Shown piece after piece: positions 1-30,413 of a stretch of 64,000 nt of DNA. Below the pieces are notes generated by a model. It did no database searches. It was given only the letters and a program-made list of their open reading frames with translations, and was not told where the DNA came from. The position numbers and the translations under genes are program-made. Position 1 is the first letter of the stretch, and every line of letters begins with the position of its first letter. Source of the stretch: Fidelibacterota bacterium (GTDB taxonomy: Bacteria > Fidelibacterota > Marinisomatia > Marinisomatales > UBA1611); the NCBI GenBank assembly GCA_002708715.1, contig PAPB01000035.1, forward strand, positions 22,285 through 86,284, given 5' to 3'.

Positions 1-1848
1 AAAATGCTTAAAATGAAGGAAAAGATCGGATTACATATCAAAAAATCAATTGATTTAAATCAAATCCATAGTCAAGTAGGTATCAGAGAAAATAAAAAAA
101 TAGCAAAAAGAGTAGCAGCTGAAGCAATAACCTGTGTAAAACTAGAAAAAGATTTACTTCCAATTTCAAAATTATCAGATAGTCCTATTTATGTTATTGA
201 TATATATGATTATAAATATGATCACTCTATTTCAAATATAACGAAAGGATTAATTAGTACTGGATTAAATATTAAACCATATCAGATTGATGAATCAGAT
301 TCAAAAAAAATAATGCATGCTATCCTTGATGAGATACCTTCAGGTGCTAATACCATAATCAATACTTTTGTGACACATAAAGCTTGGAAGGATAGAATAT
401 CTCTTCCAGAAAACGAATTATACTTCATTAACAGATTACAAGAAAAAACGAATAATATTGTTTTGGGAAGTCTTGGTAATCCATACGTTATCCAAAGTTT
501 TCCTGATATTCCTGTTTATATTTGCGCATACAAAGATAATTTATTGATGCAAGATGCGTATATGAATGCCATTTTAGGGAAAGTTGCGATATCTGGAAAA
601 TTACCAATTTCTATCCCAGGCATTGCAGAAATAGGACAAGGTATAATTGTTGAAAAATATACACCAAAGCATAGTTCAAAAGTCTATAAACCTGGAACTG
701 AAGTCAAAAGGGTTTTGCCAGAAGAAATAAATGCTAATACTGATAATATTATTAAATTTTTGAATGAAGCTGTAGATGACAAAGCTTTCCCTGGCGCTGT
801 ATTACTTGCATCAAAAAATGGTAAAATTTTTCTTCATGAAGCTGCAGGATATCACACCTATAATAAAATACACAAAATGCGGAAAAGTGATATATTTGAC
901 TTGGCATCTATCACAAAAGTTGTTTCTACAACATCAGCGATTATGAAATTATATGATGAAGGGTTAATCAATTTACAAACACCAGTGACAAAATATTTGC
1001 CTGCTTTTAAAGGGAAAAATAATAAATATTTTTCCCATAAAGAAAAAATAACAATTGAGCACCTATTAACACATACTAGTGGTCTTCCGCCTTTTAGACA
1101 ATATTATCTAATGGAAGGGGATATTGAATCACGGGTTGATAGTATCTATAATACTATACCTATTTATAGTCTAGCTGACACTATGGTTTACTCGGATGTT
1201 GGGATTATTGTTTTAGGTAAGATTATTGAGGAAATTACCGGAATTTCTATTGAAAAGTATTCTAAACAAAATATTTTCGATCCACTCGGTATGACTGCGA
1301 CTATGTATAACCCTATTAGAAAAAAAATGCATAGGGTGGTACCAACAGAAATAAATAAAGAAAACTCTCTTATAAAAGGATATGTCCATGATGAGAATGC
1401 GCTTAGTCTTGGTGGAGTGGCAGGCCATGCGGGCTTATTTTCTACCGCTAAAGATTTGGCACTATTTGCACAGATGATGTTAAATAATGGTATATATAGA
1501 TGGGAGAGAATTTTTACGCCTGAAACTGTAAAGCTTTTCACAAGTAAATCTTTTATTATTGATGGAAGCTCTAGATGTCTTGGTTGGGATAGTCCTTCTG
1601 GAAAAGCATCTGGTGGGTTGTATATGAGTGACAATAGTTATGGGCACAATGGTTTTACTGGAACAAGTATGTGGATTGATGTGGACAATGATATTTTTGT
1701 GATTTTATTATCGAATGCTGTACATCCAAATAGAAATAATAAAAATCCGACTTATTTTGATTGGAGGCAAAGGTTACATTCATTAGTTTACCAATCTCTA
1801 GGATTTGAAAATGAAAATCCCAAACTTGAATGGCGTAAGCAATGGTAG
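1..1848 (+). CDS. Fusion protein, 5' end outside the window: GH3 (NagZ-type) C-terminal region plus a beta-lactamase-fold serine hydrolase
   Basis: The frame is open to nt 1. The C-terminal half carries SxxK (ASITK), YSD and HNGFTGT..WID motifs typical of class-C beta-lactamase/esterase-like hydrolases. The first ~220 aa resemble the C-terminal domain of long NagZ-like GH3 enzymes; that part is a recollection, not a search result. Confidence 0.7.
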   Translation, partial: KMLKMKEKIGLHIKKSIDLNQIHSQVGIRENKKIAKRVAAEAITCVKLEKDLLPISKLSDSPIYVIDIYDYKYDHSISNITKGLISTGLNIKPYQIDESDSKKIMHAILDEIPSGANTIINTFVTHKAWKDRISLPENELYFINRLQEKTNNIVLGSLGNPYVIQSFPDIPVYICAYKDNLLMQDAYMNAILGKVAISGKLPISIPGIAEIGQGIIVEKYTPKHSSKVYKPGTEVKRVLPEEINANTDNIIKFLNEAVDDKAFPGAVLLASKNGKIFLHEAAGYHTYNKIHKMRKSDIFDLASITKVVSTTSAIMKLYDEGLINLQTPVTKYLPAFKGKNNKYFSHKEKITIEHLLTHTSGLPPFRQYYLMEGDIESRVDSIYNTIPIYSLADTMVYSDVGIIVLGKIIEEITGISIEKYSKQNIFDPLGMTATMYNPIRKKMHRVVPTEINKENSLIKGYVHDENALSLGGVAGHAGLFSTAKDLALFAQMMLNNGIYRWERIFTPETVKLFTSKSFIIDGSSRCLGWDSPSGKASGGLYMSDNSYGHNGFTGTSMWIDVDNDIFVILLSNAVHPNRNNKNPTYFDWRQRLHSLVYQSLGFENENPKLEWRKQW

Positions 1849-3194
1849 TTAAAAAAAGATTTATTTACTTTTTGTTTCCAATAATTTTAAGCATTTCTTT
1901 TGCAAGTCGTGTTGTTGGATATTACCCTTATTGGGTTCAAAATACGCTCTTACCTCAAAATATTGATCTAGAAACATTTACTCATATTAATCATGCTTTT
2001 GCATGGCCAGATGCGAATGGTGGAATAATCGCTCCAAATAATTCATTTTTTAATGTTGCGACATCGAGCTATATCCATGACCTAGATAGGAAATTCATCC
2101 TTTCTTTAGGTGGAGGAGGGCAGGGTCAAGGATTTGCCACCTCTACCTCAACATATGATATTAGAGCAGTTTTTATAGAGAATATTATTGATAAGCTTAT
2201 TACCTATGGTTATGATGGAGTTGATATTGACTGGGAGCATCCTCAATCAGCCGAGCAAAGGAATAACCTCACCCAATTTATTCAAGAATTAGATTCCACA
2301 TTCAATGCCTTTGATCCTGAGTTGTTAATAACCATGGCAGTTCCCATATCAAATTGGTCTGGGCAGTGGTATGATTTTAATAGCCTAAAATTGTATGTGG
2401 ATTATTTTAATGCAATGACGTATGATATCCATGGAGGGTGGAGTTCACATGCAGGTCATAATTCACCTTTATATCAATCTCCACAGGGTGACCCCGATGG
2501 GTCAGTTCAGACAGGGATAAATTATTTAATAAGCAGTGGAATCCCTCAAGAAAAAATAAATATGGGTATACCTTTTTGGGGCAAGCAATATAATACATCT
2601 ACAATTAATGGAAGTTTTTCTGGTACTGTTCTTGATTTATATTACAATGAAATTACTTCACTCATTGGTAATGGGTGGGTTTACGAATGGGATAATGTTG
2701 CTAAGTGTCCTTATCTTGTGAAAGATGATCAAACAAAAATTATCACCTATGATAATCCTCTTTCAGTACAGTATAAATGTAATTATGCAAAACTTAGAAA
2801 TCTTGGAGGGGTTATGGTATGGGCATTAGGGTATGATGAAATGGATGGAGATGAGACTCTTACAGGGGCAATTAATATGTATTGGTTATCAGCATCGAAT
2901 CGTGATTTTAACATTTTACCAAATGATGTTAGTCTAGCTGTATTTCCTAATCCATTCAATCCAAGAACAAAAATAAAATTTGAACTACATAAAGCTGACA
3001 ATATTCGTATCAATATATACAATATTAGAGGGGTAAAAATGGGGACGGTAATAAATGACTATTTTAAGGCAGGAACTCACGTAATGAATTATTATCCAGA
3101 ATCCAATCATGATAATATTTCTAGTGGCATTTATTTTTTGGAACTGGAAACTTCTACAAAAAGATTGACAGAAAAAATATTATATTTAAAATAA
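1842..3194 (+). CDS. GH18 chitinase / endo-beta-N-acetylglucosaminidase-like enzyme with a T9SS C-terminal sorting domain
   Basis: It has an N-terminal signal peptide and the GH18 catalytic motif DGVDIDWEHP (DxxDxDxE). The C-terminus (VFPNPFNPRTKIKFEL...GIYFLELE...ILYLK) matches the Por-secretion-tail pattern. The ATG overlaps the upstream stop (ATGGTAG). Confidence 0.85.
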   Translation: MVVKKRFIYFLFPIILSISFASRVVGYYPYWVQNTLLPQNIDLETFTHINHAFAWPDANGGIIAPNNSFFNVATSSYIHDLDRKFILSLGGGGQGQGFATSTSTYDIRAVFIENIIDKLITYGYDGVDIDWEHPQSAEQRNNLTQFIQELDSTFNAFDPELLITMAVPISNWSGQWYDFNSLKLYVDYFNAMTYDIHGGWSSHAGHNSPLYQSPQGDPDGSVQTGINYLISSGIPQEKINMGIPFWGKQYNTSTINGSFSGTVLDLYYNEITSLIGNGWVYEWDNVAKCPYLVKDDQTKIITYDNPLSVQYKCNYAKLRNLGGVMVWALGYDEMDGDETLTGAINMYWLSASNRDFNILPNDVSLAVFPNPFNPRTKIKFELHKADNIRINIYNIRGVKMGTVINDYFKAGTHVMNYYPESNHDNISSGIYFLELETSTKRLTEKILYLK

Positions 3195-3195
3195 A

Positions 3196-4515
3196 TCAGT
3201 CATAGAGGTAATATTTAGAAGATTTTTTAATAAATCTATTTATATCATTTCTCTGTTTCATAAGAAAATCAAATACGGATTCCTCTATACTAATTTCATC
3301 CGAGTTGGCTCCACTGTTTAGGTAGTTTGATAGAGATTTATCCCCATAGAGCTTATTTAGTGTTTTAGCATTAAATTGAAATTGATCTTTGTAAAGATTT
3401 TTTATCATATAGAGTTCGTAAAGCGCCGTTTCTAAAGATTTATATCTATATTTATCGGTTATTTCCAAAGAACTCCCGTAGCAAGTTTGATTTTTAAATT
3501 TTGGTTTTAATGTTTTCCCAGGTATGGATTCTGGAGAAAACTTAGTAAAACTAATTTCCACTCCATTAAGGTTTATATTTTGTAGTTTTTCAATTAACGT
3601 ATTAGTTATCCACGGAGCGCCAATCTGTTTAAATGGTCTTTTTGTACCGCGGCCTTCACTAATATTTGTAGCTTCAATTAGACACCTGCCAGGATATACA
3701 ATCGCGGTTTCGAGATCTGGAATATTTGGAGAAGGTGCAACCCATGGTAATCCTGTTTTATTAAAATACATTGATCTTTTCCAACCATCCATTTTTACAA
3801 TTGTTAAATTTTTTGGTATAGATGATAACCAATTTTCATTTACTGCCATATTGGTAAGTTCGCCAACGGTCATCCCATATCGAATGGGTATGGGATAATA
3901 ACCTATAAATGATTTGAATGAATTATCAAGAATAGGGCCTTCAATTATTTCTCCTCCAATTGGATTTGGTCTATCGAAAACCATTACATCTATACCATTT
4001 TCCGATGCAGCTTCAATAACCATTCCAAGAGTGGATATGTAGGTGTAGAACCTGGCGCCAATATCTTGGATATCATAAATAATTAAATCAATTCCTTTTA
4101 GCATTGCACTAGTTGGTTTTCTATTTTTGCCGTATAAAGATATAATCTCTACTTTTTTAAAATTTTTATTTTCATAGTTAATTTTTGCGCCAGCACTTGC
4201 TTCGCCAAAGAAACCATGCTCTGGAGCAAAAATCTTTTTTAAAAATAAATTCGGACTTTCTTGAAAAATTTTATAATTATTTTTAGAATTTCTCGTTATA
4301 CCAGTATGATTAGTAACTAAGCCGATAGTTTTATTCTTAAGAATATTTGGATAATCTTCAAGCAAAACATCTAAGCCAGTCCTCACAGAACCATTTTTTT
4401 GGGTAGTTATTGGTTTAAGAATTTTTACATTATTGATGGGAGATCGACAACTAAGTAATAAGATAAGTAATATTAAAAGATATTTCTTCACAACTTGATT
4501 TAGATTATTTCGCAA
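3196..4515 (-). CDS. namZ: DUF1343 family protein (exo-beta-N-acetylmuramidase NamZ-like)
   Basis: 439 aa with a lipoprotein-like leader (LLLSC). The blocks GLVTNHTGI, FAPEHGFFG, SLYG, DIQDIGARFYTY, FDRPNPIGG and RYGMTVGE are characteristic of DUF1343/NamZ. Confidence 0.75.
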   Translation of the reverse strand: MRNNLNQVVKKYLLILLILLLSCRSPINNVKILKPITTQKNGSVRTGLDVLLEDYPNILKNKTIGLVTNHTGITRNSKNNYKIFQESPNLFLKKIFAPEHGFFGEASAGAKINYENKNFKKVEIISLYGKNRKPTSAMLKGIDLIIYDIQDIGARFYTYISTLGMVIEAASENGIDVMVFDRPNPIGGEIIEGPILDNSFKSFIGYYPIPIRYGMTVGELTNMAVNENWLSSIPKNLTIVKMDGWKRSMYFNKTGLPWVAPSPNIPDLETAIVYPGRCLIEATNISEGRGTKRPFKQIGAPWITNTLIEKLQNINLNGVEISFTKFSPESIPGKTLKPKFKNQTCYGSSLEITDKYRYKSLETALYELYMIKNLYKDQFQFNAKTLNKLYGDKSLSNYLNSGANSDEISIEESVFDFLMKQRNDINRFIKKSSKYYLYD

Positions 4516-4575: not shown

Positions 4576-5988
4576 ATTCATTGGATTGATATTATAATTA
4601 TTTTAACCTTTTTAACTGGATTTATCATTTTTGGATGGTATCAAGGTAAGCAAAATACATCATCTAAAGATTACTTTTTAGGGAATAAATCTTTACCATG
4701 GGTTATTGCAATGTTTTCTATAGTTGCAACGGAAACGTCAGTATTAACCTTTATCAGCGTTCCAGGTCTTGCTTATCGTGGGGATTGGACTTTTCTGCAG
4801 TTGGGTTTTGGTTATATTCTTGGAAGAGTCTTTGTTAGCTTTTTTTTCCTTCCGAAATATTTTACATCTGGAGTTACATCTATCTATCAAATAATAGGTA
4901 ATAGATTTGGCCAGAATATTCAAAAAGTTGCATCCATCATTTTCCTTATTACTCGCGTTTTGGCAGATGGTATAAGGTTTTTAGCAACTGCTGTCATTGT
5001 TCAAGTTATTACTGGATGGACATTAATATCCTCAGTGATTTTAATTGGTGTAATTACATTAGTTTATGTTGTCATAGGTGGTCTTAAAATAATAATATGG
5101 ATCGATAGTGTACAATTTTTTCTCTATCTACTTGGAGGATGTATAACGATCTTTTTTATAATGTATAATGCAGAGGATAGTTTCGGAAATATTTGGTCTG
5201 GTTTAATTTACTCTGATAAAATACAGATATTTAGCTTTTCAGGAAGCATGTTTGATGATCCATACCTTTTTATAAATGCATTAATAGGCGGGATGTTTCT
5301 CTCTCTCTCCTCTCACGGTGTAGACTACATGATGGTTCAGCGAGTCTTAAGTGTTAAAGATTTAAGATCTGGTCAAAAAGCTATGATTGGAAGTGGAATT
5401 TTCGTTTTGATTCAATTTACAATTTTTTTATTTGCTGGATCTCTAATTTTTTATTTATTTGAAGGAGCCATAATAAATAAAGATCGTGAATTCAGCACTT
5501 TTATTGTAGAATATTTACCTGTTGGATTAAAGGGTTTCTTGTTGGCGGGAATTTTATCAGCTGCGATGTCAACTTTGAGCTCATCGATAAATGCGCTTGC
5601 TTCTTCCACTTTAATTGATTTATTCAAAGGTGAACCTTCCTTATTATCTTCTAGATTGATGAGTTTATTTTGGGCTATAATTTTAATTGGAATAGCACTG
5701 ATTTTCGATGAAAGTGACTCTGCAATTGTAATCATTGGATTACAAATAGCATCATTTACATATGGTGGACTATTGGGATTGTTTATTTTGAGTAAGTTTA
5801 ATAAAGAATTCAATTCTATAAGTTTAATTATTGGGCTAGTATGTAGTCTTTTGATTGTATTTTATCTGAAATACTTGGGAATTGCATGGACTTGGTTTAT
5901 TTTAATTTCTGTAATTGTGAACATAACCATAACAATTATAGTTGAAAAATTGGTAACTAGATCAGGGGAGAATTCGCTTCACATATAA
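4576..5988 (+). CDS. Sodium:solute symporter family transporter (start codon uncertain)
   Basis: A polytopic hydrophobic protein. The SSF N-terminal signature DYFLGNKSLPW..ATETS and a first TM helix lie upstream of the first ATG (4711) in the same frame. That frame is open back to the stop at 4552-4554 and contains no ATG, GTG or TTG. AAGGAG at 4563-4568 is followed 7 nt later by an in-frame ATT at 4576. Confidence 0.75.
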   Translation: MHWIDIIIILTFLTGFIIFGWYQGKQNTSSKDYFLGNKSLPWVIAMFSIVATETSVLTFISVPGLAYRGDWTFLQLGFGYILGRVFVSFFFLPKYFTSGVTSIYQIIGNRFGQNIQKVASIIFLITRVLADGIRFLATAVIVQVITGWTLISSVILIGVITLVYVVIGGLKIIIWIDSVQFFLYLLGGCITIFFIMYNAEDSFGNIWSGLIYSDKIQIFSFSGSMFDDPYLFINALIGGMFLSLSSHGVDYMMVQRVLSVKDLRSGQKAMIGSGIFVLIQFTIFLFAGSLIFYLFEGAIINKDREFSTFIVEYLPVGLKGFLLAGILSAAMSTLSSSINALASSTLIDLFKGEPSLLSSRLMSLFWAIILIGIALIFDESDSAIVIIGLQIASFTYGGLLGLFILSKFNKEFNSISLIIGLVCSLLIVFYLKYLGIAWTWFILISVIVNITITIIVEKLVTRSGENSLHI

Positions 5989-7071
5989 AAATGATTTAGA
6001 TCTTTGATATGCAAAATCAGGAGACTCTTTATCTAGAGAATTTACCTTTACCATGCCTCCCTGATGAATAAATTCTTTTTTCCCTGCACTTATTCCAACG
6101 TGAGTGACTCTATCTTTTTCACCGAAAAATAATAGATCTCCAGCTAAAATATTATCCCATGTCTCATTAGGGATGATTTTTGTTCCTAATAATGCCTGCT
6201 GTCTTGCATCTCTAGGGAGCTGGATCCCTTGAGATTTAAAAACTGTCTGAGTAAACCCTGAACAATCATTTGCTTTGGATGAGTTTCCTCCCCATAAATA
6301 TGGAGTCCCAGTCATTCTATAAGCCTCGAATAACAATTTTTTAGTATTAATAGACTGGATTAATGTAGTGCCTATTGGTTTAAGGTTTTTTTCCCTAGCA
6401 AATCCAGAACGTCCATCTGGTAAAATAACTGATATCCAATTGTTATTATTCTTTTTGCCGATAAATATATTATTTAAAATGATATCAGTAATGGGTTGAC
6501 TAGTTTCATATGGCAGAGAGAATATTGAGGCATGTAATGCGCTAACTTTATAGTTAGTTGCATTTTCCCATTTTTTTATACCAATGGAATCCGTTACAAT
6601 AATTCCAGTTTTGTTAATCCAGCCAACATAATCATAATCAGTCTGTATAAGATACCACCCATCTTTCTCTTGAAGTAGTTTAGTTATATTTCCCATTATT
6701 GCTTGATCTATCATTTGGCTGGAGTGCTTAGGTTTTTCCCTTATGGGAGTAACGCTTACATTAATAATCCCAAAGACGCTATCACCAAGGGATGAGTCTG
6801 GTAACAATAACAGATTATTTATTATGTTGTCCTTTCCAAATAATGAATCTGTGAATTCAAGAATACGAACATATGCGGGCTTTGTTGTCATTTCGCCAGA
6901 GAGTATCCATTTTTTATCAATTCTATCTAAGCTGATAGAAAAAACGGATAGTGTTTTATCAGTAATATATATTTCTTCAATTTTCTTAATTTGATTGTTA
7001 AAAGTTGTTTTTAGTTTTTTCTCTCCATTACAATTGATAAAGAATAATAAAAGACTGATAATGAAATACAT
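5962..7071 (-). CDS. NlpC/P60 (C40) peptidoglycan peptidase with SH3b-like domains, YkfC-like gamma-D-Glu-diamino-acid endopeptidase; lipoprotein
   Basis: The C-terminal block NDCSGFTQTVF...GDLLFF...THVGI carries the NlpC/P60 Cys and His. The upstream region looks like SH3b repeats. The start is placed at the Met of MYFIISLLLFFINC (lipobox), not at 7161, which would overlap the upstream gene by 50 nt. Confidence 0.75.
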   Translation of the reverse strand: MYFIISLLLFFINCNGEKKLKTTFNNQIKKIEEIYITDKTLSVFSISLDRIDKKWILSGEMTTKPAYVRILEFTDSLFGKDNIINNLLLLPDSSLGDSVFGIINVSVTPIREKPKHSSQMIDQAIMGNITKLLQEKDGWYLIQTDYDYVGWINKTGIIVTDSIGIKKWENATNYKVSALHASIFSLPYETSQPITDIILNNIFIGKKNNNNWISVILPDGRSGFAREKNLKPIGTTLIQSINTKKLLFEAYRMTGTPYLWGGNSSKANDCSGFTQTVFKSQGIQLPRDARQQALLGTKIIPNETWDNILAGDLLFFGEKDRVTHVGISAGKKEFIHQGGMVKVNSLDKESPDFAYQRSKSFLYVKRILP

Positions 7072-7111
7072 TTGATAGGAGATTATCCTTGTTAAATATA
7101 TAGACATTAGG

Positions 7112-8299
7112 TTACTCAACAATCTGATATTTATTTTTGGTTTCATCATAAGAGAAAGCATTAAAATGCCACCATTCTGAATTTAAAATACTAAAGCCCG
7201 CTTTTTGCATTACTTTACGAAGGATTCTTCGGTTCTCAACCTGCTCTTTTGAAAGCTTACCTAGATTTAATAAAGAATCTTCATAAATTGGAAAGGCAAG
7301 TGCTCCAAAATAGTCATATTTGGTTCCCATATCTAGCTCCATTCCATTTTTATAAGCAAGAGTTAGATCTATTGCTGCTCCATAATTATGTATTGAACCC
7401 TTTATAGGGTCTGCAACAAATTTAGTTCGTTCAGTTTCAGGTATGGTGTCAAGAGCGTTCCACAGTTTTTTTTGGATACTTCTTGGACGTAGACCATCGT
7501 ATACTAGTAAACGTAAATCTGGATTTAGTTCTTGTAAACTTTTACTAGCACTAACAAGCATTGCTGCAGGGGTTTTTCGTAAATAACAAGAATCCAATTC
7601 GCCGTAAATATCTTTTCCTAAAAAGTTATCTTGAGTTGAATATTTTAAATCTACAATTATACTTGGATCCAGTTCTTGAATATTCACAATTTCATCATTA
7701 TCGTTTTGGTTTGATACTATTGGATTTCCAAATAAAATTTGGCAAAAAAATACAGCTCCAATAATGCCAGCAAGATCAGCTAGAAGTCCAGCTATAAGGG
7801 CATGCCTTGATTTTCTTATGCCCACTGAACCAAAATAAACAGCAAGGACATAAAAGGTTGTTTCTGTTGAACCATACATAGTGGCTCCAATTTTTGATAT
7901 TAATGAATCTTGTCCATATCGATCTATTAGGTCAGTTAATAATCCAAGAGAGCCACTCCCTGAAAGTGGCCGCATCAAGGCAAGCGGAAGGTTCTCTGGA
8001 GGAAATCCCACGATATTTAAAAAAGGTGTTAAAAATAATAATAACATTTCCAAAGCTCCTGAAGCTCTGAACATACCAATTGCGACTAATATTGCTACAA
8101 GGTAGGGAATGATCCGAACTGCAATTGTGAAACCATCTTTTGCACCTTCTACGAATGATTCATATACTTTAACTTTTTTAAAGAAAAGACCGTAGAATGG
8201 GATTAAAACCAGTAGAAAAGGGATGATGTATCTTGATATTTGATTCGTGAGAATAACAAAAGAATCAATCATGATTTTTGCCATTTTTTGGATATTCAA
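7112..8299 (-). CDS. Fusion of a SpmB-like nucleoside-recognition/Gate membrane domain and a VanX/DdpX-type D-Ala-D-Ala dipeptidase (M15)
   Basis: The N-terminal ~190 aa are hydrophobic and SpmB-like (VYESFVEGAKDGF..IIPYLVAILVAIGMFRASGA). The C-terminal ~190 aa have the dipeptidase blocks DLKYSTQDNF, YDGLRPRSIQ, GSIHNYGAAIDLTL, ELDMGT and EWWHF. An alternative start at 8272 overlaps the spmA stop (ATGATTGA). Confidence 0.8.
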   Translation of the reverse strand: MNIQKMAKIMIDSFVILTNQISRYIIPFLLVLIPFYGLFFKKVKVYESFVEGAKDGFTIAVRIIPYLVAILVAIGMFRASGALEMLLLFLTPFLNIVGFPPENLPLALMRPLSGSGSLGLLTDLIDRYGQDSLISKIGATMYGSTETTFYVLAVYFGSVGIRKSRHALIAGLLADLAGIIGAVFFCQILFGNPIVSNQNDNDEIVNIQELDPSIIVDLKYSTQDNFLGKDIYGELDSCYLRKTPAAMLVSASKSLQELNPDLRLLVYDGLRPRSIQKKLWNALDTIPETERTKFVADPIKGSIHNYGAAIDLTLAYKNGMELDMGTKYDYFGALAFPIYEDSLLNLGKLSKEQVENRRILRKVMQKAGFSILNSEWWHFNAFSYDETKNKYQIVE

Positions 8300-8867
8300 A
8301 TCGTTTCATTTTTTCTAGAAATTTTACAGCTATGATAGCTGTTATTGTTGATAATCCTGTAGCTAAAATTGTAGTAATAAAGATTTGATTTGCCGCTGCG
8401 CCCATTAGAGCAACTACAGTGGCAGGTAAAATGATTTGAACACTAGATGTATTTATGGCTAAAAATGTACACATTGCATTTGTAGCTGTTTCTTTATCAT
8501 CATTTAATTCCTGTAACTCTTCCATTGCTTTAAGTCCTAATGGAGTAGCTGCATTACCAAGGCCAAGTATATTTGCAGCCATGTTGAGAATAATTGACCC
8601 GATAGCTGGATGATCAGATGGAATGTCTGGAAATAGCCATAGGGTAATGGGACGAAGACCTCGAGCTATGATACGAATTAGCCCAGCTTCCTCTGCAATC
8701 TTCATTATTCCAAGCCAAAGGGCCATGATGCCAATAAGGCCTAGAGCAATAGTAACTGCTGTTTTGGACATATCTATTGCTGCCTGTGTTACAGCATCAA
8801 TATTTCCAGTTATCGTTCCTACAATAACAGCAACAAACATCATTCCAAACCAAATATAGTTTAGCAT
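8265..8867 (-). CDS. spmA: SpmA-like nucleoside-recognition (Gate) domain membrane protein
   Basis: A 200 aa hydrophobic protein (MLNYIWFGMMF...GLIGIMALWLGIMKIAEEAGL) with the typical SpmA N-terminus. It sits immediately upstream of the SpmB-like gene. Confidence 0.7.
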   Translation of the reverse strand: MLNYIWFGMMFVAVIVGTITGNIDAVTQAAIDMSKTAVTIALGLIGIMALWLGIMKIAEEAGLIRIIARGLRPITLWLFPDIPSDHPAIGSIILNMAANILGLGNAATPLGLKAMEELQELNDDKETATNAMCTFLAINTSSVQIILPATVVALMGAAANQIFITTILATGLSTITAIIAVKFLEKMKRFEYPKNGKNHD

Positions 8868-9803
8868 TTAAGTCTCTTTTTGTACAGCTGTTTCAAGTAT
8901 CTCAATGTATGGTTTATTGGTTGCATTAAGCTCAACTGATAAAGATAGAGGTATTGTACATTGGTATTTACCATGTCCGCAAGGGAAATTAGATATAATT
9001 GGAATGTCTAAATCCCCACAAATATCCATCACAATTTCATCAGTATTCTTTCCAAAAGGTATGTCCTGATCTTTAAAATCAGATAATTCTCCTATTACTA
9101 GCCCTTTAATATTTTTAAACATTCCTGATTCATACATATGCATCATGTTTCTTTCAAAAGAATATAAATATTCGTCTACATCTTCCAAAAAAAGAATTAT
9201 ATCTTTTGTTATTAAGGCATCATTAGTTCCTAAACGGTTTATAAGTAAAGTCATATTGCCACCCCATATTTCCCCAATTCCAGTTCCTGATTTTAATATT
9301 TTCACAGGTAGTGAATTTGAAGAAAAAATTTTCTTTTTTCCCTTAAATTGGAGGATCTGTAGCATTTGATGATAGTTATATTTTATAAATTGTTCGTTAA
9401 AGCTAGATAACATGGGACCATGAAAAGTAATGAGGCCTGTTTTTTGAGTGATTGATGTTAAATACGCTGTTATATCACTATATCCTAAAAATATTTTAGG
9501 ATTTTTTTTGATAATATCATAATCTAATAACGGTAATACTTTATTTGCGCCATACCCTCCACGTGCACAAATGATAACATCTATTGTTGGATCCTCAAAC
9601 ATATTATGAATATCATCAGCGCGATCTTGAGGTGTACCAGCAAAAGGTCCAAACCTTAAGAAATTACTTGTACCAAATTTTAAATTATATCCAAGGTCAG
9701 TAAAATATTTTGAAGTTTCCTCTAAGACTTTTTTATTAGGCCAATAAGATGGGCTTATAACGCCTATTGTTGAATTTGCTTTAAATTCTTTTGGTTTAAT
9801 CAT
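8868..9803 (-). CDS. ldcA: LD-carboxypeptidase (peptidase S66, LdcA/MccF family)
   Basis: It shows GVISPS, ARGGYG, the nucleophile elbow GYSDITA and FPCGHG (His), at an S66-typical size of 311 aa. Confidence 0.85.
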   Translation of the reverse strand: MIKPKEFKANSTIGVISPSYWPNKKVLEETSKYFTDLGYNLKFGTSNFLRFGPFAGTPQDRADDIHNMFEDPTIDVIICARGGYGANKVLPLLDYDIIKKNPKIFLGYSDITAYLTSITQKTGLITFHGPMLSSFNEQFIKYNYHQMLQILQFKGKKKIFSSNSLPVKILKSGTGIGEIWGGNMTLLINRLGTNDALITKDIILFLEDVDEYLYSFERNMMHMYESGMFKNIKGLVIGELSDFKDQDIPFGKNTDEIVMDICGDLDIPIISNFPCGHGKYQCTIPLSLSVELNATNKPYIEILETAVQKET

Positions 9804-11196
9804 CTATTATATATTGAATTATTTTATCTTGAAGTGATCGGTAAGGATTGGAATCTCCTATATATCCATTAGTTAAAATTGAAAATGCTATCGGGCCATA
9901 TCTAGGCGAAAAAATATATCCAGATATATTTGTGACTCCTGATAGCCCTCCTGTTTTAACCCTTATCATATCTCCTGCTATTTTTAGTCTATCTTCCATA
10001 GTCCCTTTTTTCATGCCTCCAGTAGGTAAGCATGAAATAAAATCATTTTTATGCTGACTATTAAATATCCATTCTAAAAATGTACATATTTCAGATGCAC
10101 TTGTTAGGTTATATCTAGATAGGCCAGATCCATCTGCAATTTTTATAAGGGTAGTATCGATGCCAACCGAATCATTTAGAAATATTTTTATATTGTGTAA
10201 GCCATTCTTCCAATCACCTTGCTTGTGATTAGTTAAGCCAATTTTTTTCACAAATAGTTCTGCAGTAAGATTATCACTTTCATTCATCAAGTTTTGTGCA
10301 GAATGTAATAATGATCTTGATGTATGGAGTGCTATTGGAATTGATTTTTTCGTTATTGATGTTATTGCAATTTGATTTACAACCACACTATATTTATTTA
10401 AAAGTTCTTTGAAAATTGTACCTGTAAATAGTGCTGGGTTTTTAATATTTCGTTTTAGTGTATCAGAAGCTGCGCCGTTTTTAATGGAACCGCTTATAGT
10501 AAAATGGTTTTTTTGTTTTATGAAGTCACGTTCTATAAATATTTTTTCGATGTTTGGGTTTTGTTTAATTGTTAAAGAATTGTTAGATATTGAAATATAA
10601 TCTGTTTTTGGATATGTTTTGATATTTGCAGGTTCATCTATCTCTCCTGGATTTATAATAAAATCAATACAGTTATCATTTAATGATAATGCACTTATTG
10701 GAGCGGCATACCACCATGGACCCTCATCCCACATCCACCCATTACCATAATAGACTGAGTCCATAAGAGTTGCGTCTAGGAATAATGTATCGACAAAATT
10801 TATAGATTGTGCTGAGCGGATTGCCAGGGAATCAAGTTGTGCTACAGTAAGATCAGGATCTCCGCCACCTTTTAAAATGAGGTTTTTTCCATCTTGCAAG
10901 ATGCTTGTTGTGAAAATATGATCCTCTCCTAGGTAGTGTAGTGACGCGCCTAGCGTATAGAGTTTATTATTACTTGCTGGAGTAAATAGTTTTTCACTAT
11001 TTAGCTCGTATAATGTTTTACCATTTTTTAGAGAAACTATTTTGATACCTAGTGATACATCAACATTTGAATTATTTATTATTTTATTAATTGGCTTTTT
11101 TAGTGATGTCATTCCATAATTTGTGTATAGTACCTTATTAGGAATGCAAGATTGAAAAATCATAAAAAATAATAAAAAATTATAAAAGGGTTTCAT
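9796..11196 (-). CDS. dacB: D-alanyl-D-alanine carboxypeptidase/endopeptidase, PBP4 family (S13)
   Basis: It has a signal peptide, SxxK (PASNNK), DGSGLSRYN and KTGGLSGV motifs, and is 466 aa long. Confidence 0.85.
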   Translation of the reverse strand: MKPFYNFLLFFMIFQSCIPNKVLYTNYGMTSLKKPINKIINNSNVDVSLGIKIVSLKNGKTLYELNSEKLFTPASNNKLYTLGASLHYLGEDHIFTTSILQDGKNLILKGGGDPDLTVAQLDSLAIRSAQSINFVDTLFLDATLMDSVYYGNGWMWDEGPWWYAAPISALSLNDNCIDFIINPGEIDEPANIKTYPKTDYISISNNSLTIKQNPNIEKIFIERDFIKQKNHFTISGSIKNGAASDTLKRNIKNPALFTGTIFKELLNKYSVVVNQIAITSITKKSIPIALHTSRSLLHSAQNLMNESDNLTAELFVKKIGLTNHKQGDWKNGLHNIKIFLNDSVGIDTTLIKIADGSGLSRYNLTSASEICTFLEWIFNSQHKNDFISCLPTGGMKKGTMEDRLKIAGDMIRVKTGGLSGVTNISGYIFSPRYGPIAFSILTNGYIGDSNPYRSLQDKIIQYIIDD

Positions 11197-11200
11197 TTGA

Positions 11201-11854
11201 TTAATCTATTATTTTATTGAAAAAGGCATTTAGTAATGCATCGCCTAGCGGTTGTGCTTTTTTAAAGTCATTTTGATTGATACCGATTCTTTCTGCAAAT
11301 ATATTACTCGCTTCAATATGAGTTTGAAAACTCCAAATCGGAAGATGCTTATGGGATATTGCTTCAATCTCAACCATTGAACTCGATCCAGAGATAGTAA
11401 AATCGGTTGGGCATTCTACTACACCTTCTTGGTGCGAATAAATTAAATAATCTTCAAATGTGCTCTTTAGTAAATTGTTATTATTGAGTTTGACTTTTCT
11501 GATTCCTATTTTTTTCTTGGCATTCCACAATAACTTTATTTTTCCCCCAAAGATATGTGCTAGAAATTGATGGCCAAAACATATTCCAAGAATAGGAACT
11601 TTCTTTTCAATAGCTTTTGTTATAACTATTGTAACATTTTTCATCCAATCAAAATTGTCATGTACTGATGCAGCGCTTCCCATTAAAATTACACCAGACA
11701 CATTTTTTATTTGATTTTCCATAGATTTTGAGTTGTGAATTGCAGGAAGATGGTAGCTTGTCTGAATAGGGCTTTTTGAGGCTAATTTATTGTAAGACTC
11801 TAATTCTGGAATTTCTAAAGATGGATCAATAATCATTAAATTTTTTGTATACAT
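11201..11854 (-). CDS. Class-I glutamine amidotransferase-like protein (GATase1 / C26-type fold)
   Basis: It has the nucleophile elbow GICFGHQ and a His-x-Glu (QTHIE) near the C-terminus. No synthase partner domain is present. Any role in gamma-glutamyl bond hydrolysis is only a guess from context. Confidence 0.65.
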   Translation of the reverse strand: MYTKNLMIIDPSLEIPELESYNKLASKSPIQTSYHLPAIHNSKSMENQIKNVSGVILMGSAASVHDNFDWMKNVTIVITKAIEKKVPILGICFGHQFLAHIFGGKIKLLWNAKKKIGIRKVKLNNNNLLKSTFEDYLIYSHQEGVVECPTDFTISGSSSMVEIEAISHKHLPIWSFQTHIEASNIFAERIGINQNDFKKAQPLGDALLNAFFNKIID

Positions 11855-11996
11855 TTATTTTTCTAAACTATTTATAATTGACTTAATTAAACATCCCATC
11901 ATTCTATTGAAAAATATTATTTATTTACGATTAATGATATCTAATAATAATCCATAATTACTTATAAATTAGTGTCTTATATTTATTTAAAAATTA

Positions 11997-12827
11997 GTGT
12001 ATATAAAAATATTTTTCTTATTTCTGACTCTTGTTATTGGTTGTTCAAAAACAGATCCTTTTGAATGGATTGAAACTTTGCCTAATCCGTGGGATTTAAC
12101 TGAGAACCAGTTAAATATTTATTTGCCTCAGTTTCATGATCGATTTCCTGATTATAAAAATAGATTAATTGCTTTGAATTTATGGCGTGTCGGGACTCCA
12201 TACGGAATTTTTTGCCTTGGTGAAGAGCGAGGTGTCGACCCTGATCCAATCATTAGGATTGATACTTCTGATTGTACTGTACACGTATTGACTACTATTG
12301 CCTATGCGGAAAGCCAATCTTTTAAGGATGCGAAAGATGCGATGATTCAATTGCATTATAAACCAAATCGTTATGGACAAATAGATCCTAGCTTTCAATC
12401 AAGATGGCATTACACTTCAGATAGATTATTAAATAATCCAAAAACTCCAGACATCACTTCAAAAGTTGTATCATCAGATATCCTTGAAACTATTGAAATT
12501 GAAATAAATAGGAAGCAGAATGGAGAGCAATTTTTAGATTTAGATTGGACTTCAAAAGAATCAATAAGTTTTATCCCAATTATAAAAATAGATGAAGATA
12601 TTTTAAAAAAACTTCCTAAAATTTGTGGCGTAGCTTTTGTTAAAAAAAGTTATTTTAGAAATGGGATTGTTATAGCTCATGAAGGTTATCTTATAAATAA
12701 AAAGAATTTAATACACGCATCTTCAAATGAAAAAATGACAGTAAATATAGATTTTTTATCATATTTATTTGGAAATGGTGGCCCTGGATTTGATGGAGTT
12801 ATGTTTTATGATTTTAAAGAAGGATAG
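11997..12827 (+). CDS. Lipoprotein, DUF1460 / N-acetylmuramoyl-L-alanine amidase-like (tentative)
   Basis: It has a GTG start and a lipobox (LVIGC). The DTSDCTVHV Cys-containing block and a C-terminal HASS... block are reminiscent of DUF1460. The call is made from memory only. Confidence 0.45.
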   Translation: MYIKIFFLFLTLVIGCSKTDPFEWIETLPNPWDLTENQLNIYLPQFHDRFPDYKNRLIALNLWRVGTPYGIFCLGEERGVDPDPIIRIDTSDCTVHVLTTIAYAESQSFKDAKDAMIQLHYKPNRYGQIDPSFQSRWHYTSDRLLNNPKTPDITSKVVSSDILETIEIEINRKQNGEQFLDLDWTSKESISFIPIIKIDEDILKKLPKICGVAFVKKSYFRNGIVIAHEGYLINKKNLIHASSNEKMTVNIDFLSYLFGNGGPGFDGVMFYDFKEG

Positions 12828-12839
12828 TAGATAATTAGT

Positions 12840-15167
12840 TTGAAATTATCAAGTATAGAAAATAGCGTTATTGAAAAAAATGTATTCGATAAGCAGAATA
12901 CAAAGATTCCTTATATCACGGTAGATAGTTTTCCTGATTTAGGTCTAATTACTGCCTTAAGATTTCTGGAATGGACTTTTGATAATCCAGAAGGAGTTAT
13001 CAGTCTGCCTACTGGTAAAACTCCTGAATATTTTATTAAATGGACAAATTATTTTATAAAAAATTGGGACACTGACAGTGTAAAGTCTATCAGAGGAAAA
13101 TATGGGCTGATATCTAAAACTCGACCTGATTTATCAAAATTACAATTTATTCAAATTGATGAGTTCTATCCTTTAAACCCTAACCAACATAATAGTTTTT
13201 ACAATTATGTAATTAAATATTATTTAGAAGGTTTTGGGATAGAAAAAAATAGATCCTATTTAATAAGTTCTAATGAAATTCCTTTAGCAAACGGTATGCA
13301 TTGGGAAGAAGTATTCTCTAATGGTATGGTTGATTTGAGTCTGAGACATAGAGAGGCAGCTACTGAAATAGAAAAGTATCAACAAGAGTCTCTGTTCCTT
13401 ATTGATCAGTGGTGTAATGTATATGAAGAGAAAATACGTGAGTTAGGTGGAATTGGATTTTTTCTTGGTGGTATTGGTCCTGATGGGCATATCGCTTTTA
13501 ACGTAAGAGGATCTGATCATAATTCTACTACAAGATTAATGGAAACAAATTTTGAAACTCAGGCTACTGCCGCTATTGATCTTGGAGGTATTGAAATTAG
13601 CAGGAATAGATTAGTCATTACCATTGGGCTTGGGACCATTACATATAATAAAGAAGCAACTGCTATCATAATTGCAGCTGGAGAAGCAAAAGCATCGATT
13701 ATTCAAAAATCACTTGAGTCAGATCAGGATATAATGTATCCTGCTTCTGTATTACAAAAACTAGAGCACTCTAGATTCTATATAACCTCTGGTGCTTCAA
13801 AATATTTGACAGATACTGATACTAAATTTTGGATGGAATCACCTTGGAATATTCAAAAAAAGCAAAGAGCACTTCTTAAGCTATCTAAAGAAAAAAATAT
13901 ATTTGGTAAAAAATTAACTGTTGAGGATTTTAAAAAAGAAAAAAAATTTAAAGGTATTAAAAATCTGAATGAAAATACTATTCCAGAGATAATTAAAAGT
14001 ATCGATGCAAAAGTCCAACGTGGTATAAAAAGTGAAAAAAATCAAATATATTACCATACTGGGCCACACCATGATGATATTATGTTAGGTATGATGCCAC
14101 ATATTATTCATTTAGTTAGAGAACCTAGTAATAGGCATATATTTGCAAATATGACATCTGGTTTTACTTCTGTGACTAATGATTTTTTAATTAAAGCACT
14201 TAAAAAGACACTATTTTTTCTTGAGAATGAAAGAATAGGAATGGTTACCTATCCAGACTTTTTTTCTAAAGGCTATAAATTTAAGTGGGACAAAGATGTA
14301 TACCATTATCTTGATAGAATAGCGGATAACGATATTAATGGACAGCAAAGAGGATTATCTCATAGAATCGTTCGATCAATTGTTGAAATATTCTCCATTA
14401 AAAATAAAAAACAATTATCTCATCAGTTAAAAACCATTATTAATGAATTAGGTAGGTGCTATGAAGGAGAAAAAAACTCTTTTGATATTCAAAAATTAAA
14501 AGGTATGATTCGTGAATTTGAAGAAGAATTGGTATGGGCAAACTATGGAGTCCGTGTCCGAGATGTTCACCATTTACGTCTTGGGTTTTATAAGGGTGAT
14601 ATGTTTACAGAGCAACCACAGAAAAAAAGAGATGTGAATCCAATATTAAATCAATTACAGGAATTTGAGCCTACAGTAATCTCTTTAGCACTTGATCCTG
14701 AGGGTAGTGGGCCTGATACTCATTATAAAGTACTCCAGTCTATAGCGGAGGCAATTAGACTTTGGGGAAAAACTTCTGATCTTTCAAAGTTGCGTATCTG
14801 GGGATATAGAAATGTTTGGTATCGTTTTGATTTAGAAGAAGCAGATCTCATTGTGCCTGTAACACTTAACTCTATGGCTATTATGCATTCAACGTTTATG
14901 AATTGTTACTTAAGTCAGAAAGATGCATCTTTTCCAAGCTATGAATATGATGGCCCTTTTTCAAAATTGTCCCAAAAAATATGGGTGGAACAACATCGTG
15001 ATTTACAATTGATCTTAGGCAGAGATTATTGGTATCGTAATCCTAATCCACATTTACGTGCTGTACATGGAGCGGTTTATTTAAAAGAGATGAATGTCGA
15101 AAAATTTTTAAGCTTATCAAGGCGACTTGAAGAATCTATAGAGAATTCAGCTATTTTTAACGATTAG
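12840..15167 (+). CDS. Glucosamine-6-phosphate deaminase (NagB) fused to a PIG-L/LmbE-type deacetylase domain
   Basis: The N-terminal half has the NagB blocks LPTGKTP, QIDEF and GGIGPDGHIAFN. The C-terminal half begins with HTGPHHDDIMLG (PIG-L/LmbE metal motif). TTG start. Confidence 0.8.
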   Translation: MKLSSIENSVIEKNVFDKQNTKIPYITVDSFPDLGLITALRFLEWTFDNPEGVISLPTGKTPEYFIKWTNYFIKNWDTDSVKSIRGKYGLISKTRPDLSKLQFIQIDEFYPLNPNQHNSFYNYVIKYYLEGFGIEKNRSYLISSNEIPLANGMHWEEVFSNGMVDLSLRHREAATEIEKYQQESLFLIDQWCNVYEEKIRELGGIGFFLGGIGPDGHIAFNVRGSDHNSTTRLMETNFETQATAAIDLGGIEISRNRLVITIGLGTITYNKEATAIIIAAGEAKASIIQKSLESDQDIMYPASVLQKLEHSRFYITSGASKYLTDTDTKFWMESPWNIQKKQRALLKLSKEKNIFGKKLTVEDFKKEKKFKGIKNLNENTIPEIIKSIDAKVQRGIKSEKNQIYYHTGPHHDDIMLGMMPHIIHLVREPSNRHIFANMTSGFTSVTNDFLIKALKKTLFFLENERIGMVTYPDFFSKGYKFKWDKDVYHYLDRIADNDINGQQRGLSHRIVRSIVEIFSIKNKKQLSHQLKTIINELGRCYEGEKNSFDIQKLKGMIREFEEELVWANYGVRVRDVHHLRLGFYKGDMFTEQPQKKRDVNPILNQLQEFEPTVISLALDPEGSGPDTHYKVLQSIAEAIRLWGKTSDLSKLRIWGYRNVWYRFDLEEADLIVPVTLNSMAIMHSTFMNCYLSQKDASFPSYEYDGPFSKLSQKIWVEQHRDLQLILGRDYWYRNPNPHLRAVHGAVYLKEMNVEKFLSLSRRLEESIENSAIFND

Positions 15168-19757: not shown

Positions 19758-20378
19758 GTGAATAAAAAGCTGTCACCAAAGTTGAAAAAATTCTTGGACT
19801 TTATACATCGATTTATATTGATTCATGATCAGTCTCCATCTTATGAAGAAATCATGCAAAGCTTAGGATTTGGATCATTGGGGACAGTTAACTGGTATGT
19901 AAAGACCCTAGAAGAACAGGGTTATTTATATCGTGTAAAAGGTCCTAACGGTAAGCGGGCACTCGCCTTAGCTCAAGAAGAGCTTTCCGCAACTACAACA
20001 GCCTGTTTACCGTTATTAGGGCTTATCGCTGCGGGTGAGCCTATTGAAGCGTTAGAGAATCCTGAGATGGTGGACGTTCCATCATCTTTATTGCATCCAG
20101 ATAATTATGTGCTACAGGTTAAAGGTAATTCTATGATTGATGAAAATATACATGATGGAGATTATATCGTTGCTAGAAAAGCAAAAACTGCACGTTCAGG
20201 ACAGATTGTTGTTGCTCTTGTTAATGGTGAAGCTACATTAAAATGTTATGTCCCTAAAAAAAATAAAGTTGAATTACATCCTCGGAATTCAACTTTTCCA
20301 GTTATAAAAATCGATTCGCATGATGATTTTCATATAAATGGTGTTTTACTTTATTCCTTTCGGAACTATTTGAATTAG
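19758..20378 (+). CDS. lexA: LexA repressor (S24 peptidase)
   Basis: It has a GTG start and an N-terminal wHTH (LDFIHRFI...SPSYEEIMQSLGF.S.GTV..YVKTLEEQGYL). It also has an Ala-Gly cleavage site (LIAAGEPIEA), the catalytic Ser (GNSM) and Lys (ATLK). Confidence 0.9.
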   Translation: MNKKLSPKLKKFLDFIHRFILIHDQSPSYEEIMQSLGFGSLGTVNWYVKTLEEQGYLYRVKGPNGKRALALAQEELSATTTACLPLLGLIAAGEPIEALENPEMVDVPSSLLHPDNYVLQVKGNSMIDENIHDGDYIVARKAKTARSGQIVVALVNGEATLKCYVPKKNKVELHPRNSTFPVIKIDSHDDFHINGVLLYSFRNYLN

Positions 20379-20389
20379 GAATAATACCC

Positions 20390-30333: not shown

Positions 30334-30413
30334 TTCAGATTTTGAACAGTATTATTTATTTATAATTTGTAGTTTGCAGGAGTTTTATATAAATAAAAAT
30401 TAACGGAGGAACC

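Follow-up and report, generated by a model that had tools for sequence, protein, structure and literature searches.

Conserved in all endospore formers, the membrane proteins SpmA and SpmB have had no biochemical activity assigned to them since 1995 (PMC3533761). Their homologues occur in many non-spore-forming phyla too, and the Escherichia coli pair YjiG/YjiH is equally uncharacterised, the function of YjiG having been termed elusive in 2026 (PMC13311989); our literature search found no biochemical function for SpmA/SpmB or YjiG/YjiH, and no link between them and peptidoglycan (PG) peptides. What such a pair does is the question raised by a locus within a 64,000-nucleotide stretch from a Fidelibacterota bacterium (contig PAPB01000035.1; hereafter the window, whose own positions are used throughout), where spmA precedes a gene that joins SpmB to a dipeptidase domain of family M15. 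The fusion and the gene neighbourhoods of spmAB across phyla make the function of the pair a testable hypothesis, namely that of a permease for PG stem peptides.

Taken as a whole, the reading that we favour – a fusion within a PG-salvage operon, a dipeptidase tethered in the periplasm, and SpmA and SpmB as an antiparallel importer of stem peptides – has in our judgement about an even chance of being right. The Gate+M15 architecture itself was already present in precomputed Pfam annotations; what is new is its interpretation as a periplasmic tether, the antiparallel pair and the cross-phylum neighbourhood of PG peptidases.

The fusion gene and its dipeptidase domain

In the window, spmA and spmB::M15 are adjacent and co-directional (Table 1), and the frame of the fusion is unbroken over positions 7112-8299 of the minus strand. 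Translation could begin at 8284, giving a 390-amino-acid (aa) form (P0001), or at a TTG at 8299; the start shared by relatives is the ATG at 8272, since the residue that it encodes, M5 in the 390-aa form, does not vary in an alignment of 41 fusion proteins (alignment A1). Most relatives are 386-387 aa long. Starting there, the fusion gene overlaps the end of spmA, with its stop codon, by 8 nucleotides (nt), and the same overlap recurs at two related loci used for comparison below, L001 (a relative at 73% identity) and L011.

All three Pfam matches exceed their gathering scores (E-values in Table 1): Gate (PF07670) in SpmA reaches 49.3 bits against a cut-off of 29.6, Gate at residues 61-161 of the fusion 44.7 bits against 29.6, and Peptidase_M15 (PF01427) at residues 202-381 of the fusion 89.1 bits against 27. 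The NCBIfam model for YjiG (NF007811) matches the SpmB half at 1.9e-9, and the membrane half of the fusion is a bona fide SpmB-type Gate protein.

The first-pass annotation had described the other half as a complete dipeptidase of the VanX/DdpX type, a description borne out by Pfam, by alignment with VanX (structure 1R44) and by the motifs GSIHNYGAAIDLTL and EWWHF, which align with the zinc-binding and catalytic residues of VanX. In the numbering of the 390-aa form, R266, H299, D306, E370 and H373 correspond to VanX R71, H116, D123, E181 and H184, the equivalent of Arg71 being retained within DGLRPR. The catalytic set – Arg, the His-Asp-His zinc ligands and the catalytic Glu – is complete, and its residues are invariant or nearly invariant in the 41 aligned fusion proteins. 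A model built with AlphaFold2 (AF2) gives the domain a VanX-like fold at a predicted local distance difference test (pLDDT) of ~96-98, and its best Foldseek match is 1R44 itself (E 2.7e-11, TM-score on target 0.71). The best NCBIfam models for the C-terminal half are DdpX (NF007557; 8.7e-37, 126.6 bits) and VanX (NF033115; 63.6 bits), both scoring below the respective equivalog cut-offs of 176 and 320. By sequence, catalytic residues and fold, the domain is a member of the VanX/DdpX/PcgL family, related to DdpX and VanX and an equivalog of neither.

The fusion is genuine and specific to one lineage, the marine Candidatus Marinimicrobia (SAR406). In a collection of 5.8 billion proteins, the Gate+M15 architecture is found in all of the 120 best clusters formed at 90% identity (68-100% identity), drawn from Tara, ENA, JGI, Logan and NCBI; one member of the fusion cluster is named Candidatus Marinimicrobia/Neomarinimicrobiota. 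The identical protein is present on 8 contigs, and the junction, with its linker at ~7691-7723, stays in one frame. An assembly or frameshift artefact at this point, an outcome for which the first-pass annotation had allowed, is ruled out by the continuous frame, the 120 clusters from independent datasets, the 8 contigs and the relative L001. Hundreds of sequences keep the fusion, all within one clade: an exhaustive HMMER pass over 1.84 billion representatives at 50% identity returned it at full length in a single representative (P0084), every other strong match being to the SpmB half alone or the M15 half alone. The proposed survey for Gate+Peptidase_M15 fusions hence yields one 50%-identity cluster only, and no independent fusion outside the clade was found among these representatives. 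The other multi-domain M15 matches have the architectures M15-M15, AmiA-like+M15, M23+M15 and PGA_cap+AmiA-like+M15.

One database record from the window protein's own cluster hides the fusion. For MBA65749.1 (P0271), NCBI annotates just the final 208 aa, as 'peptidase M15' – a truncated gene call that begins within the last helix of SpmB (MLFGNPIV...).

The side of the membrane

An unfused counterpart is found at L011, in the closest species-level genome of GTDB, where SpmB is 79% identical to that of the window. There, SpmB is a separate protein of 182 aa that ends in ...CQFLFG, and the M15 enzyme is encoded by its own gene, 12 nt 3' of spmB, as a 224-aa protein with a signal peptide (MIKVFFTFLCLPILGWCQS). 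In alignment A7, this signal peptide aligns with the last transmembrane helix (TM) of SpmB and the acidic linker of the fusion, and the mature M15 domains align from ...V(N/D)IQ(E/Q)LDP onwards. The fusion may have arisen from adjacent genes of this kind once the spmB stop codon and the M15 signal peptide had been lost; the last SpmB helix would then serve as a signal-anchor, keeping the dipeptidase on the periplasmic side and attached to the inner membrane.

The nearest standalone relatives of the M15 domain (P0122, P0123, P0125, P0130 and P0131, at ~50% identity) carry signal or lipoprotein peptides, and the same subfamily is joined elsewhere to exported PG hydrolases of the AmiA-like and M23 types, the AmiA-like partner (P0124, P0217) being of the family encoded at 11997-12827 of the window. 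In P0207, SpmA-SpmB is followed by lamin-tail (LTD) domains, a C-terminal TM and an RRHRR tail, a layout that is sensible solely with the C-terminus of SpmB outside, so that the extension looks extracytoplasmic. Fused SpmA-SpmB proteins have exactly one added TM before TM1 of SpmB, which would place the KKVKVYE motif in the cytoplasm.

The AF2 model, based on a deeper mixed alignment (A5), has a pLDDT of 92.7; one from the shallow, fusion-only alignment A1 gave 58 and was discarded. In the retained model, SpmB comprises TM1, an amphipathic helix that follows KKVKVYE and is joined to TM2, TM2 itself, a short helix at residues 77-91, a hairpin with RPLSGSGS at its tip, a helix broken at GSTETT and a last TM, the helices from the short one onwards being H77-91, H96-104/H109-123, H128-139/H143-154 and H160-185. 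We read the 15-residue helix 77-91 as interfacial, since it aligns with the Arg-rich interfacial helix of SpmA. Under that reading, SpmB would run from N-out to C-out, and its basic loops KKVK and RKSRH would both be cytoplasmic. The same helix as a crossing, which would leave the C-terminus inside, conflicts with the signal peptide and was dropped after the SpmA/SpmB profile alignment and the loop-charge census described below.

On the signal peptide of the unfused orthologue, the exported relatives and the loop charges, the M15 domain is thus very probably periplasmic. A quite different arrangement, in which the domain is cytoplasmic and hydrolyses, on arrival, D-Ala-D-Ala or a D-Ala-D-Ala-terminated peptide imported by SpmAB, had been left to topology prediction by the first-pass annotation; we now consider it very unlikely. 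In its favour, VanX and E. coli DdpX are cytoplasmic, E. coli yjiHG adjoins the gene for a cytoplasmic dipeptidase, and helix 77-91 as a full crossing puts the C-terminus of SpmB on the KKVKVYE side. However, it sits poorly with the signal peptide at L011, with the closest M15 relatives being exported or joined to exported PG hydrolases, and with P0207, whose architecture needs that C-terminus outside; it also forces the conserved RKSRH loop outside, in which case the net loop charge breaks the positive-inside rule. Furthermore, to judge from the mechanism of VanX, a constitutive cytoplasmic DD-dipeptidase would drain the D-Ala-D-Ala needed for wall synthesis.

With the dipeptidase in the periplasm, hydrolysis would precede uptake, and the molecule transported is unlikely to be D-Ala-D-Ala. 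The Rosetta-stone step taken in the first-pass annotation, from the fusion to D-Ala-D-Ala transport with coupled hydrolysis, finds no support in a fusion confined to one clade, an exported enzyme ancestor and a probably periplasmic C-terminus.

Two further features of L011 concern the same proteins. Directly after the exported M15 gene, at 9251-10258 (+), lies a gene for a second S66 LD-carboxypeptidase, with the signal peptide MKKLIIFIFGIHLSFIFPQ; acting on pentapeptides, this periplasmic enzyme could be a source of free D-Ala-D-Ala for M15. At 12373-12657 (+), beside a helix-turn-helix/transposase-like open reading frame (ORF), a second SpmB survives as a 94-aa remnant (~69% identical over its C-terminal half) and looks like a decayed duplicate.

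SpmA and SpmB as a candidate stem-peptide importer

SpmA and SpmB are homologous to each other (hhalign E 1.1e-4 over 149 columns), and in ~80 homologues their K+R content reverses at all five homologous loops, the SpmA/SpmB values being 1.78/3.60, 4.71/1.65, 2.67/0.99, 0.77/2.54 and 4.66/0.42. Across the same homologues, the C-tail and post-TM2 loops of SpmA are K/R-rich, and SpmA is predicted to be N-in/C-in, with a helical hairpin that enters from the cytoplasmic side. Opposite loop charges in homologous proteins are the signature of an antiparallel pair; SpmA and SpmB would thus be inserted in opposite orientations, rebuilding the inverted repeat of CNT-type Gate transporters. The CNT transport domain is built as an inverted internal repeat, which the charge inversion between SpmA and SpmB mimics. 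The repeat unit – interfacial helix, hairpin, broken helix, TM – appears to occur twice in SpmA+SpmB, and a CNT-like unit (interfacial helix, re-entrant hairpin, discontinuous TM, TM) is present in the AF2 model of SpmB. The two proteins are paired, and some proteins fuse them; SpmB has conserved arginines at R73, R105 and R160. A search of solved structures with the sequence of SpmA gave no match. If the arrangement holds, SpmA/SpmB would be a split form of the inverted repeat of CNT elevator transporters, with a bearing on how such transporters evolved.

The pair is part of a compact minus-strand operon that encodes a C26/class-I glutamine amidotransferase (GATase), PBP4 (S13), LdcA (S66), SpmA, SpmB::M15 and an SH3+NlpC/P60 protein (Table 1). 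Its position between an LD-carboxypeptidase (8868-9803) and a YkfC-like NlpC/P60 protein (5962-7161), as given in the first-pass annotation, agrees with the Pfam matches. PBP4, NlpC/P60, NamZ and the AmiA-like protein have lipoprotein N-termini, and a signal peptide is absent from LdcA and the C26-like protein. L001 keeps the core (GATase, PBP4, LdcA, SpmA, fusion), its flanks differing in that they encode a TonB-dependent receptor, an APC permease, beta-lactamase-fold proteins and Amidase_3. The C26-like gene heads the PBP4-LdcA-SpmAB operon in the window, in L001 (4422-5075) and in L011 (5804-6472); speculating from this position, its product could be a gamma-D-Glu-meso-diaminopimelate (gamma-glutamyl) amidase that acts after LdcA, analogous to MpaA.

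Table 1. Features of the locus, with positions in the window
Feature	Positions	Strand	Remarks
Class-I glutamine amidotransferase / peptidase C26-like protein	11201-11854	minus	predicted cytoplasmic; first gene of conserved operon core
PBP4/DacB-type S13 DD-carboxypeptidase/endopeptidase	9796-11196	minus	lipoprotein; 8-nt overlap with ldcA
ldcA, S66 LD-carboxypeptidase	8868-9803	minus	no signal peptide, predicted cytoplasmic; stop abuts spmA start
spmA, Gate-domain membrane protein	8265-8867	minus	200 aa; ORF, Pfam Gate 7e-13
spmB::M15 fusion gene	7112-8272	minus	conserved start ATG 8272; 386 aa
Putative SpmB Gate half-transporter domain	7724-8272	minus	Pfam Gate 2e-11, AF2 helix boundaries, hhalign homology to SpmA
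Acidic linker GNPIVSNQNDND	7691-7723	minus	no K/R; pLDDT <50 at residues 190-194
VanX/DdpX-type M15 domain (putative D-Ala-D-Ala dipeptidase)	7115-7690	minus	Pfam 4e-25, NCBIfam, 1R44 alignment, Foldseek
SH3+NlpC/P60 (YkfC-like) lipoprotein	5962-7161	minus	last operon gene; real start may be ATG 7107
AmiA-like (DUF1460) MurNAc-L-Ala amidase-like lipoprotein	11997-12827	plus	divergent from operon
NamZ exo-beta-N-acetylmuramidase lipoprotein	3196-4515	minus	part of wider PG/amino-sugar salvage locus
Sodium:solute symporter (SSF) family transporter	4711-5988	plus	in PG salvage locus

SpmAB is the sole membrane protein of the conserved operon core, and it is on this ground that we propose it as the importer of stem peptides for LdcA. 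In the mechanism that we envisage, the periplasmic breakdown of PG fragments would fall to NamZ, amidases, PBP4 and NlpC/P60, and SpmAB, as an antiparallel CNT-like permease, would import the stem peptides derived from them, to feed the cytoplasmic LdcA encoded alongside and perhaps the C26-like enzyme. On the periplasmic face of the membrane, the tethered M15 domain would cleave D-Ala-D-Ala to D-Ala, which would be taken up separately; a gene for an APC amino-acid permease lies directly after the fusion in L001 and after the M15 gene in L011.

How far the association with PG enzymes extends was addressed by a pattern scan in which each GTDB species was represented by a single genome; it gave 596 confirmed SpmB relatives, and the best 80 of them, from many phyla, were examined. 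At 78 of these 80 loci, spmA directly precedes spmB; an S66 LD-carboxypeptidase is encoded in the flanks of 10 and directly adjacent in 8, and the M15 enzyme is found in L011 only. In a Pfam census of 121 immediate neighbours at 73 loci, S66 accounts for 8/121 (7 without a signal peptide), Amidase_3 for 5/121 (lipoproteins, with CwlD as the best NCBIfam match), exported M14 proteins for 4/121 and S11 for 3/121, these last in Paenibacillaceae and in the dacB-spmA-spmB arrangement of Bacillus; S13, AmiA-like and NlpC/P60 proteins contribute one neighbour each (1/121). About one fifth of the immediate neighbours are therefore enzymes that process PG peptides. The S66-adjacent loci are labelled as Acidobacteriota, Tissierella, Anaeromicrobium, Phycisphaerales and Marinimicrobia-like metagenome-assembled genomes (MAGs), and for a gene of one or two copies per genome such adjacency, uncorrected for phylogeny, is far beyond chance. 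The association of spmAB with PG peptidases, whose occurrence elsewhere the first-pass annotation had made a test of its idea, is frequent, not universal.

Other observations from these loci concern their composition and labels. In Bacteroidota and Ignavibacteria, spmAB is bracketed by two genes, one for an Amidase_3 lipoprotein resembling CwlD and one for an M14 carboxypeptidase-like protein that is exported and has ImpL63 as its best NCBIfam match; such neighbours lie downstream of spmB in L016, L023, L027 and L046 and upstream of spmA in L016, L023, L024, L039 and L050, and this operon differs from that of Marinimicrobia and is PG-peptide-flavoured too. In L012 ('Cyanobacteria bacterium') and L013 ('Kangiella sp.'), spmAB is 67-75% identical to that of Marinimicrobia, at 36-38% G+C, and the labels may be binning errors. 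E. coli K-12 has its Gate pair yjiH-yjiG followed by iadA, for isoaspartyl dipeptidase, in an operon-like cluster where, once more, a hydrolase of small peptides accompanies a split Gate pair.

The census also bears on whether free D-Ala, handed over directly by the fused M15 domain, could be what SpmAB imports. D-Ala is the single product common to M15, S11, S13 and S66, a periplasmic enzyme mounted on a permease fits product channelling, and the three conserved SpmB arginines could bind its carboxylate. We nevertheless regard this as quite unlikely: all but one of the eight S66 neighbours are cytoplasmic and so need an imported peptide, the neighbouring Amidase_3, AmiA-like, M14 and NlpC/P60 enzymes release no D-Ala, and the APC permease of L001 and L011, whose family includes the known importer of D-Ala, CycA, could do the job.

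More modest is the view that the fusion reflects read-through of adjacent genes and tethers the enzyme, SpmAB itself having another task, be it the movement of an ion, nucleoside or other small solute or a structural part in remodelling the envelope. The fusion is limited to one clade, a sister lineage manages with separate genes, ~80% of the immediate spmAB neighbours are not PG genes, and the Gate domain, by its Pfam description, is found in FeoB and nucleoside transporters as well. The lineage may even have a local habit of tethering, as L001 encodes at 11464-13983 (-) an 839-aa protein with an N-terminal SSF domain and a C-terminal Beta-lactamase2 (serine PBP-like) domain – a second fusion of transporter and PG enzyme in the lineage, within the PG locus. 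On the other side, the loci in which spmAB stands next to a cytoplasmic S66 LdcA bear the labels of at least five phyla, amidases, M14 enzymes and DD-carboxypeptidases recur as neighbours as well, both patterns being far above chance for a gene of one or two copies, and the cytoplasmic enzymes of the operon core need an imported substrate for which SpmAB is the one membrane protein. This alternative we judge unlikely.

Several points weigh against the stem-peptide importer that we prefer. The topology is an argument from sequence logic, in which reading helix 77-91 as a full crossing would make the C-terminus of SpmB cytoplasmic, and the positive-inside count for SpmB alone is biased modestly. 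No transporter was among the PDB matches that Foldseek gave for the membrane half of the fusion, and our literature search turned up no transport assay of SpmAB or YjiGH proteins. For the M15 domain, substrate specificity is read from homology, at scores below the DdpX and VanX equivalog cut-offs, and the fusion by itself could be a plain membrane tether with no kinetic coupling. As for the neighbourhoods, the counts of the census carry no correction for phylogeny, some MAGs (Kangiella, Cyanobacteria) may owe their labels to faulty binning, many spmAB loci (e.g. P0133 and P0192) have no PG genes nearby, and one further locus adjoins Pro_dh, OPT and M20 genes; the contexts of the single distant homologues P0133, P0192, P0123 and P0139 are uninformative or on short contigs.

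Of the earlier interpretation, then, the intact and conserved fusion, the PG-peptide operon and the wider co-occurrence stand, and D-Ala-D-Ala transport with coupled hydrolysis is left without support. A broader conjecture, which we put forward tentatively and think less likely right than wrong, is that SpmA and SpmB are the two halves, opposite in orientation, of a hitherto unrecognised family of inner-membrane importers for free stem peptides, which MurNAc-L-Ala amidases would release and DD- and LD-carboxypeptidases would trim. In diderms such as the present lineage, the family would feed cytoplasmic LdcA with peptides from the cell's own or environmental PG; in endospore formers, it would clear the cortex peptides stripped by CwlD/DacB; and the M15 fusion would be a periplasmic enzyme docked on the transporter. 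The failed dehydration of the spore core in spmAB mutants is a 30-year-old observation, which clearance of cortex stem peptides would, if true, explain. PG is a major oceanic pool of organic nitrogen containing D-amino acids, and the locus offers a compact example of how the abundant, uncultured marine Marinimicrobia may strip and import it.

The operon flanks in the window also encode a NagB-like protein, a GH18 protein with a sorting domain of the type IX secretion system (T9SS) and a protein with GH3_C and a beta-lactamase fold. The 775-aa protein encoded at 12840-15167 (+) has no Pfam match at E<=0.001; its NCBIfam matches, to glucosamine-6-phosphate deaminase-like models, cover residues 188-455 only, with ~185 N-terminal and ~320 C-terminal aa left unassigned. 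T9SS machinery-like genes (PorV-like, PorK/GldK-like, and a PorU-like C-terminal match) and Por_Secre_tail cargo proteins (GH18, an FG-GAP/ASPIC protein and others) occupy spans at 1842-3194, 28600-32831, 40841-41851, 45023-46072 and 47495-51295, and T9SS-type secretion appears to be in use in this genome. Farther along, 19758-24573 (+) holds an SOS mutagenesis cassette of LexA, a Y-family polymerase (IMS/ImuB-like) and a polymerase III alpha subunit of the error-prone DnaE2 type.

Comparison with known systems

With VanX, DdpX and PcgL (MEROPS M15D), the fused domain shares a like fold, the catalytic residues and a domain size of the dipeptidase type. Those enzymes are soluble, whereas the M15 domain of the fusion is covalently attached to a polytopic membrane protein, and its genomic context is a PG-salvage operon instead of vanHA or the ddp ABC transporter. 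PcgL of Salmonella is said to have been described as a periplasmic D-Ala-D-Ala dipeptidase by Hilbert et al. in 1999, and the M15 domain of the fusion is likewise assigned, on our reasoning, to the periplasm. Elsewhere PcgL is named a D-Ala-D-Ala dipeptidase (PMC7933661).

The dacB-spmA-spmB group of Bacillus subtilis resembles the present operon in its two Gate proteins, in their order and in the presence of a DD-carboxypeptidase gene in the co-transcribed group. The SpmB sequence is 54-55% identical to Paenibacillus homologues that have an S11 DD-carboxypeptidase upstream, as in the gene arrangement of Bacillus. Unlike B. subtilis, the host is a non-sporulating, diderm-type marine bacterium, and no sporulation-related genes were seen in the window; its DD-carboxypeptidase is of family S13 rather than S11, its SpmB has an added enzyme domain, and its operon adds LdcA, the C26-like protein and NlpC/P60. 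In E. coli, YjiH/YjiG and iadA provide the same sequence of a split Gate pair from overlapping genes, followed by a dipeptidase gene; IadA, however, is a cytoplasmic isoaspartyl dipeptidase of another fold and is unfused, and YjiG is without the first TM of SpmB.

The CNT transporters and the membrane domain of FeoB have the Gate domain PF07670 in common with SpmA and SpmB, and the predicted SpmB unit corresponds to the building block of the CNT transport domain. In contrast to both, SpmA and SpmB are separate polypeptides with neither a scaffold/trimerisation domain nor a G-domain, and Foldseek gave no match between them. Finally, AmpG, Opp-MppA and YejBEF-YepA have the role proposed here for SpmAB, that of bringing products of PG turnover to cytoplasmic enzymes of the LdcA type, YejBEF-YepA being an alternative importer where AmpG is missing (PMC9790009). 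These systems belong to families unrelated to Gate proteins (MFS and ABC), and it is from gene neighbourhoods that SpmAB would join them in function.

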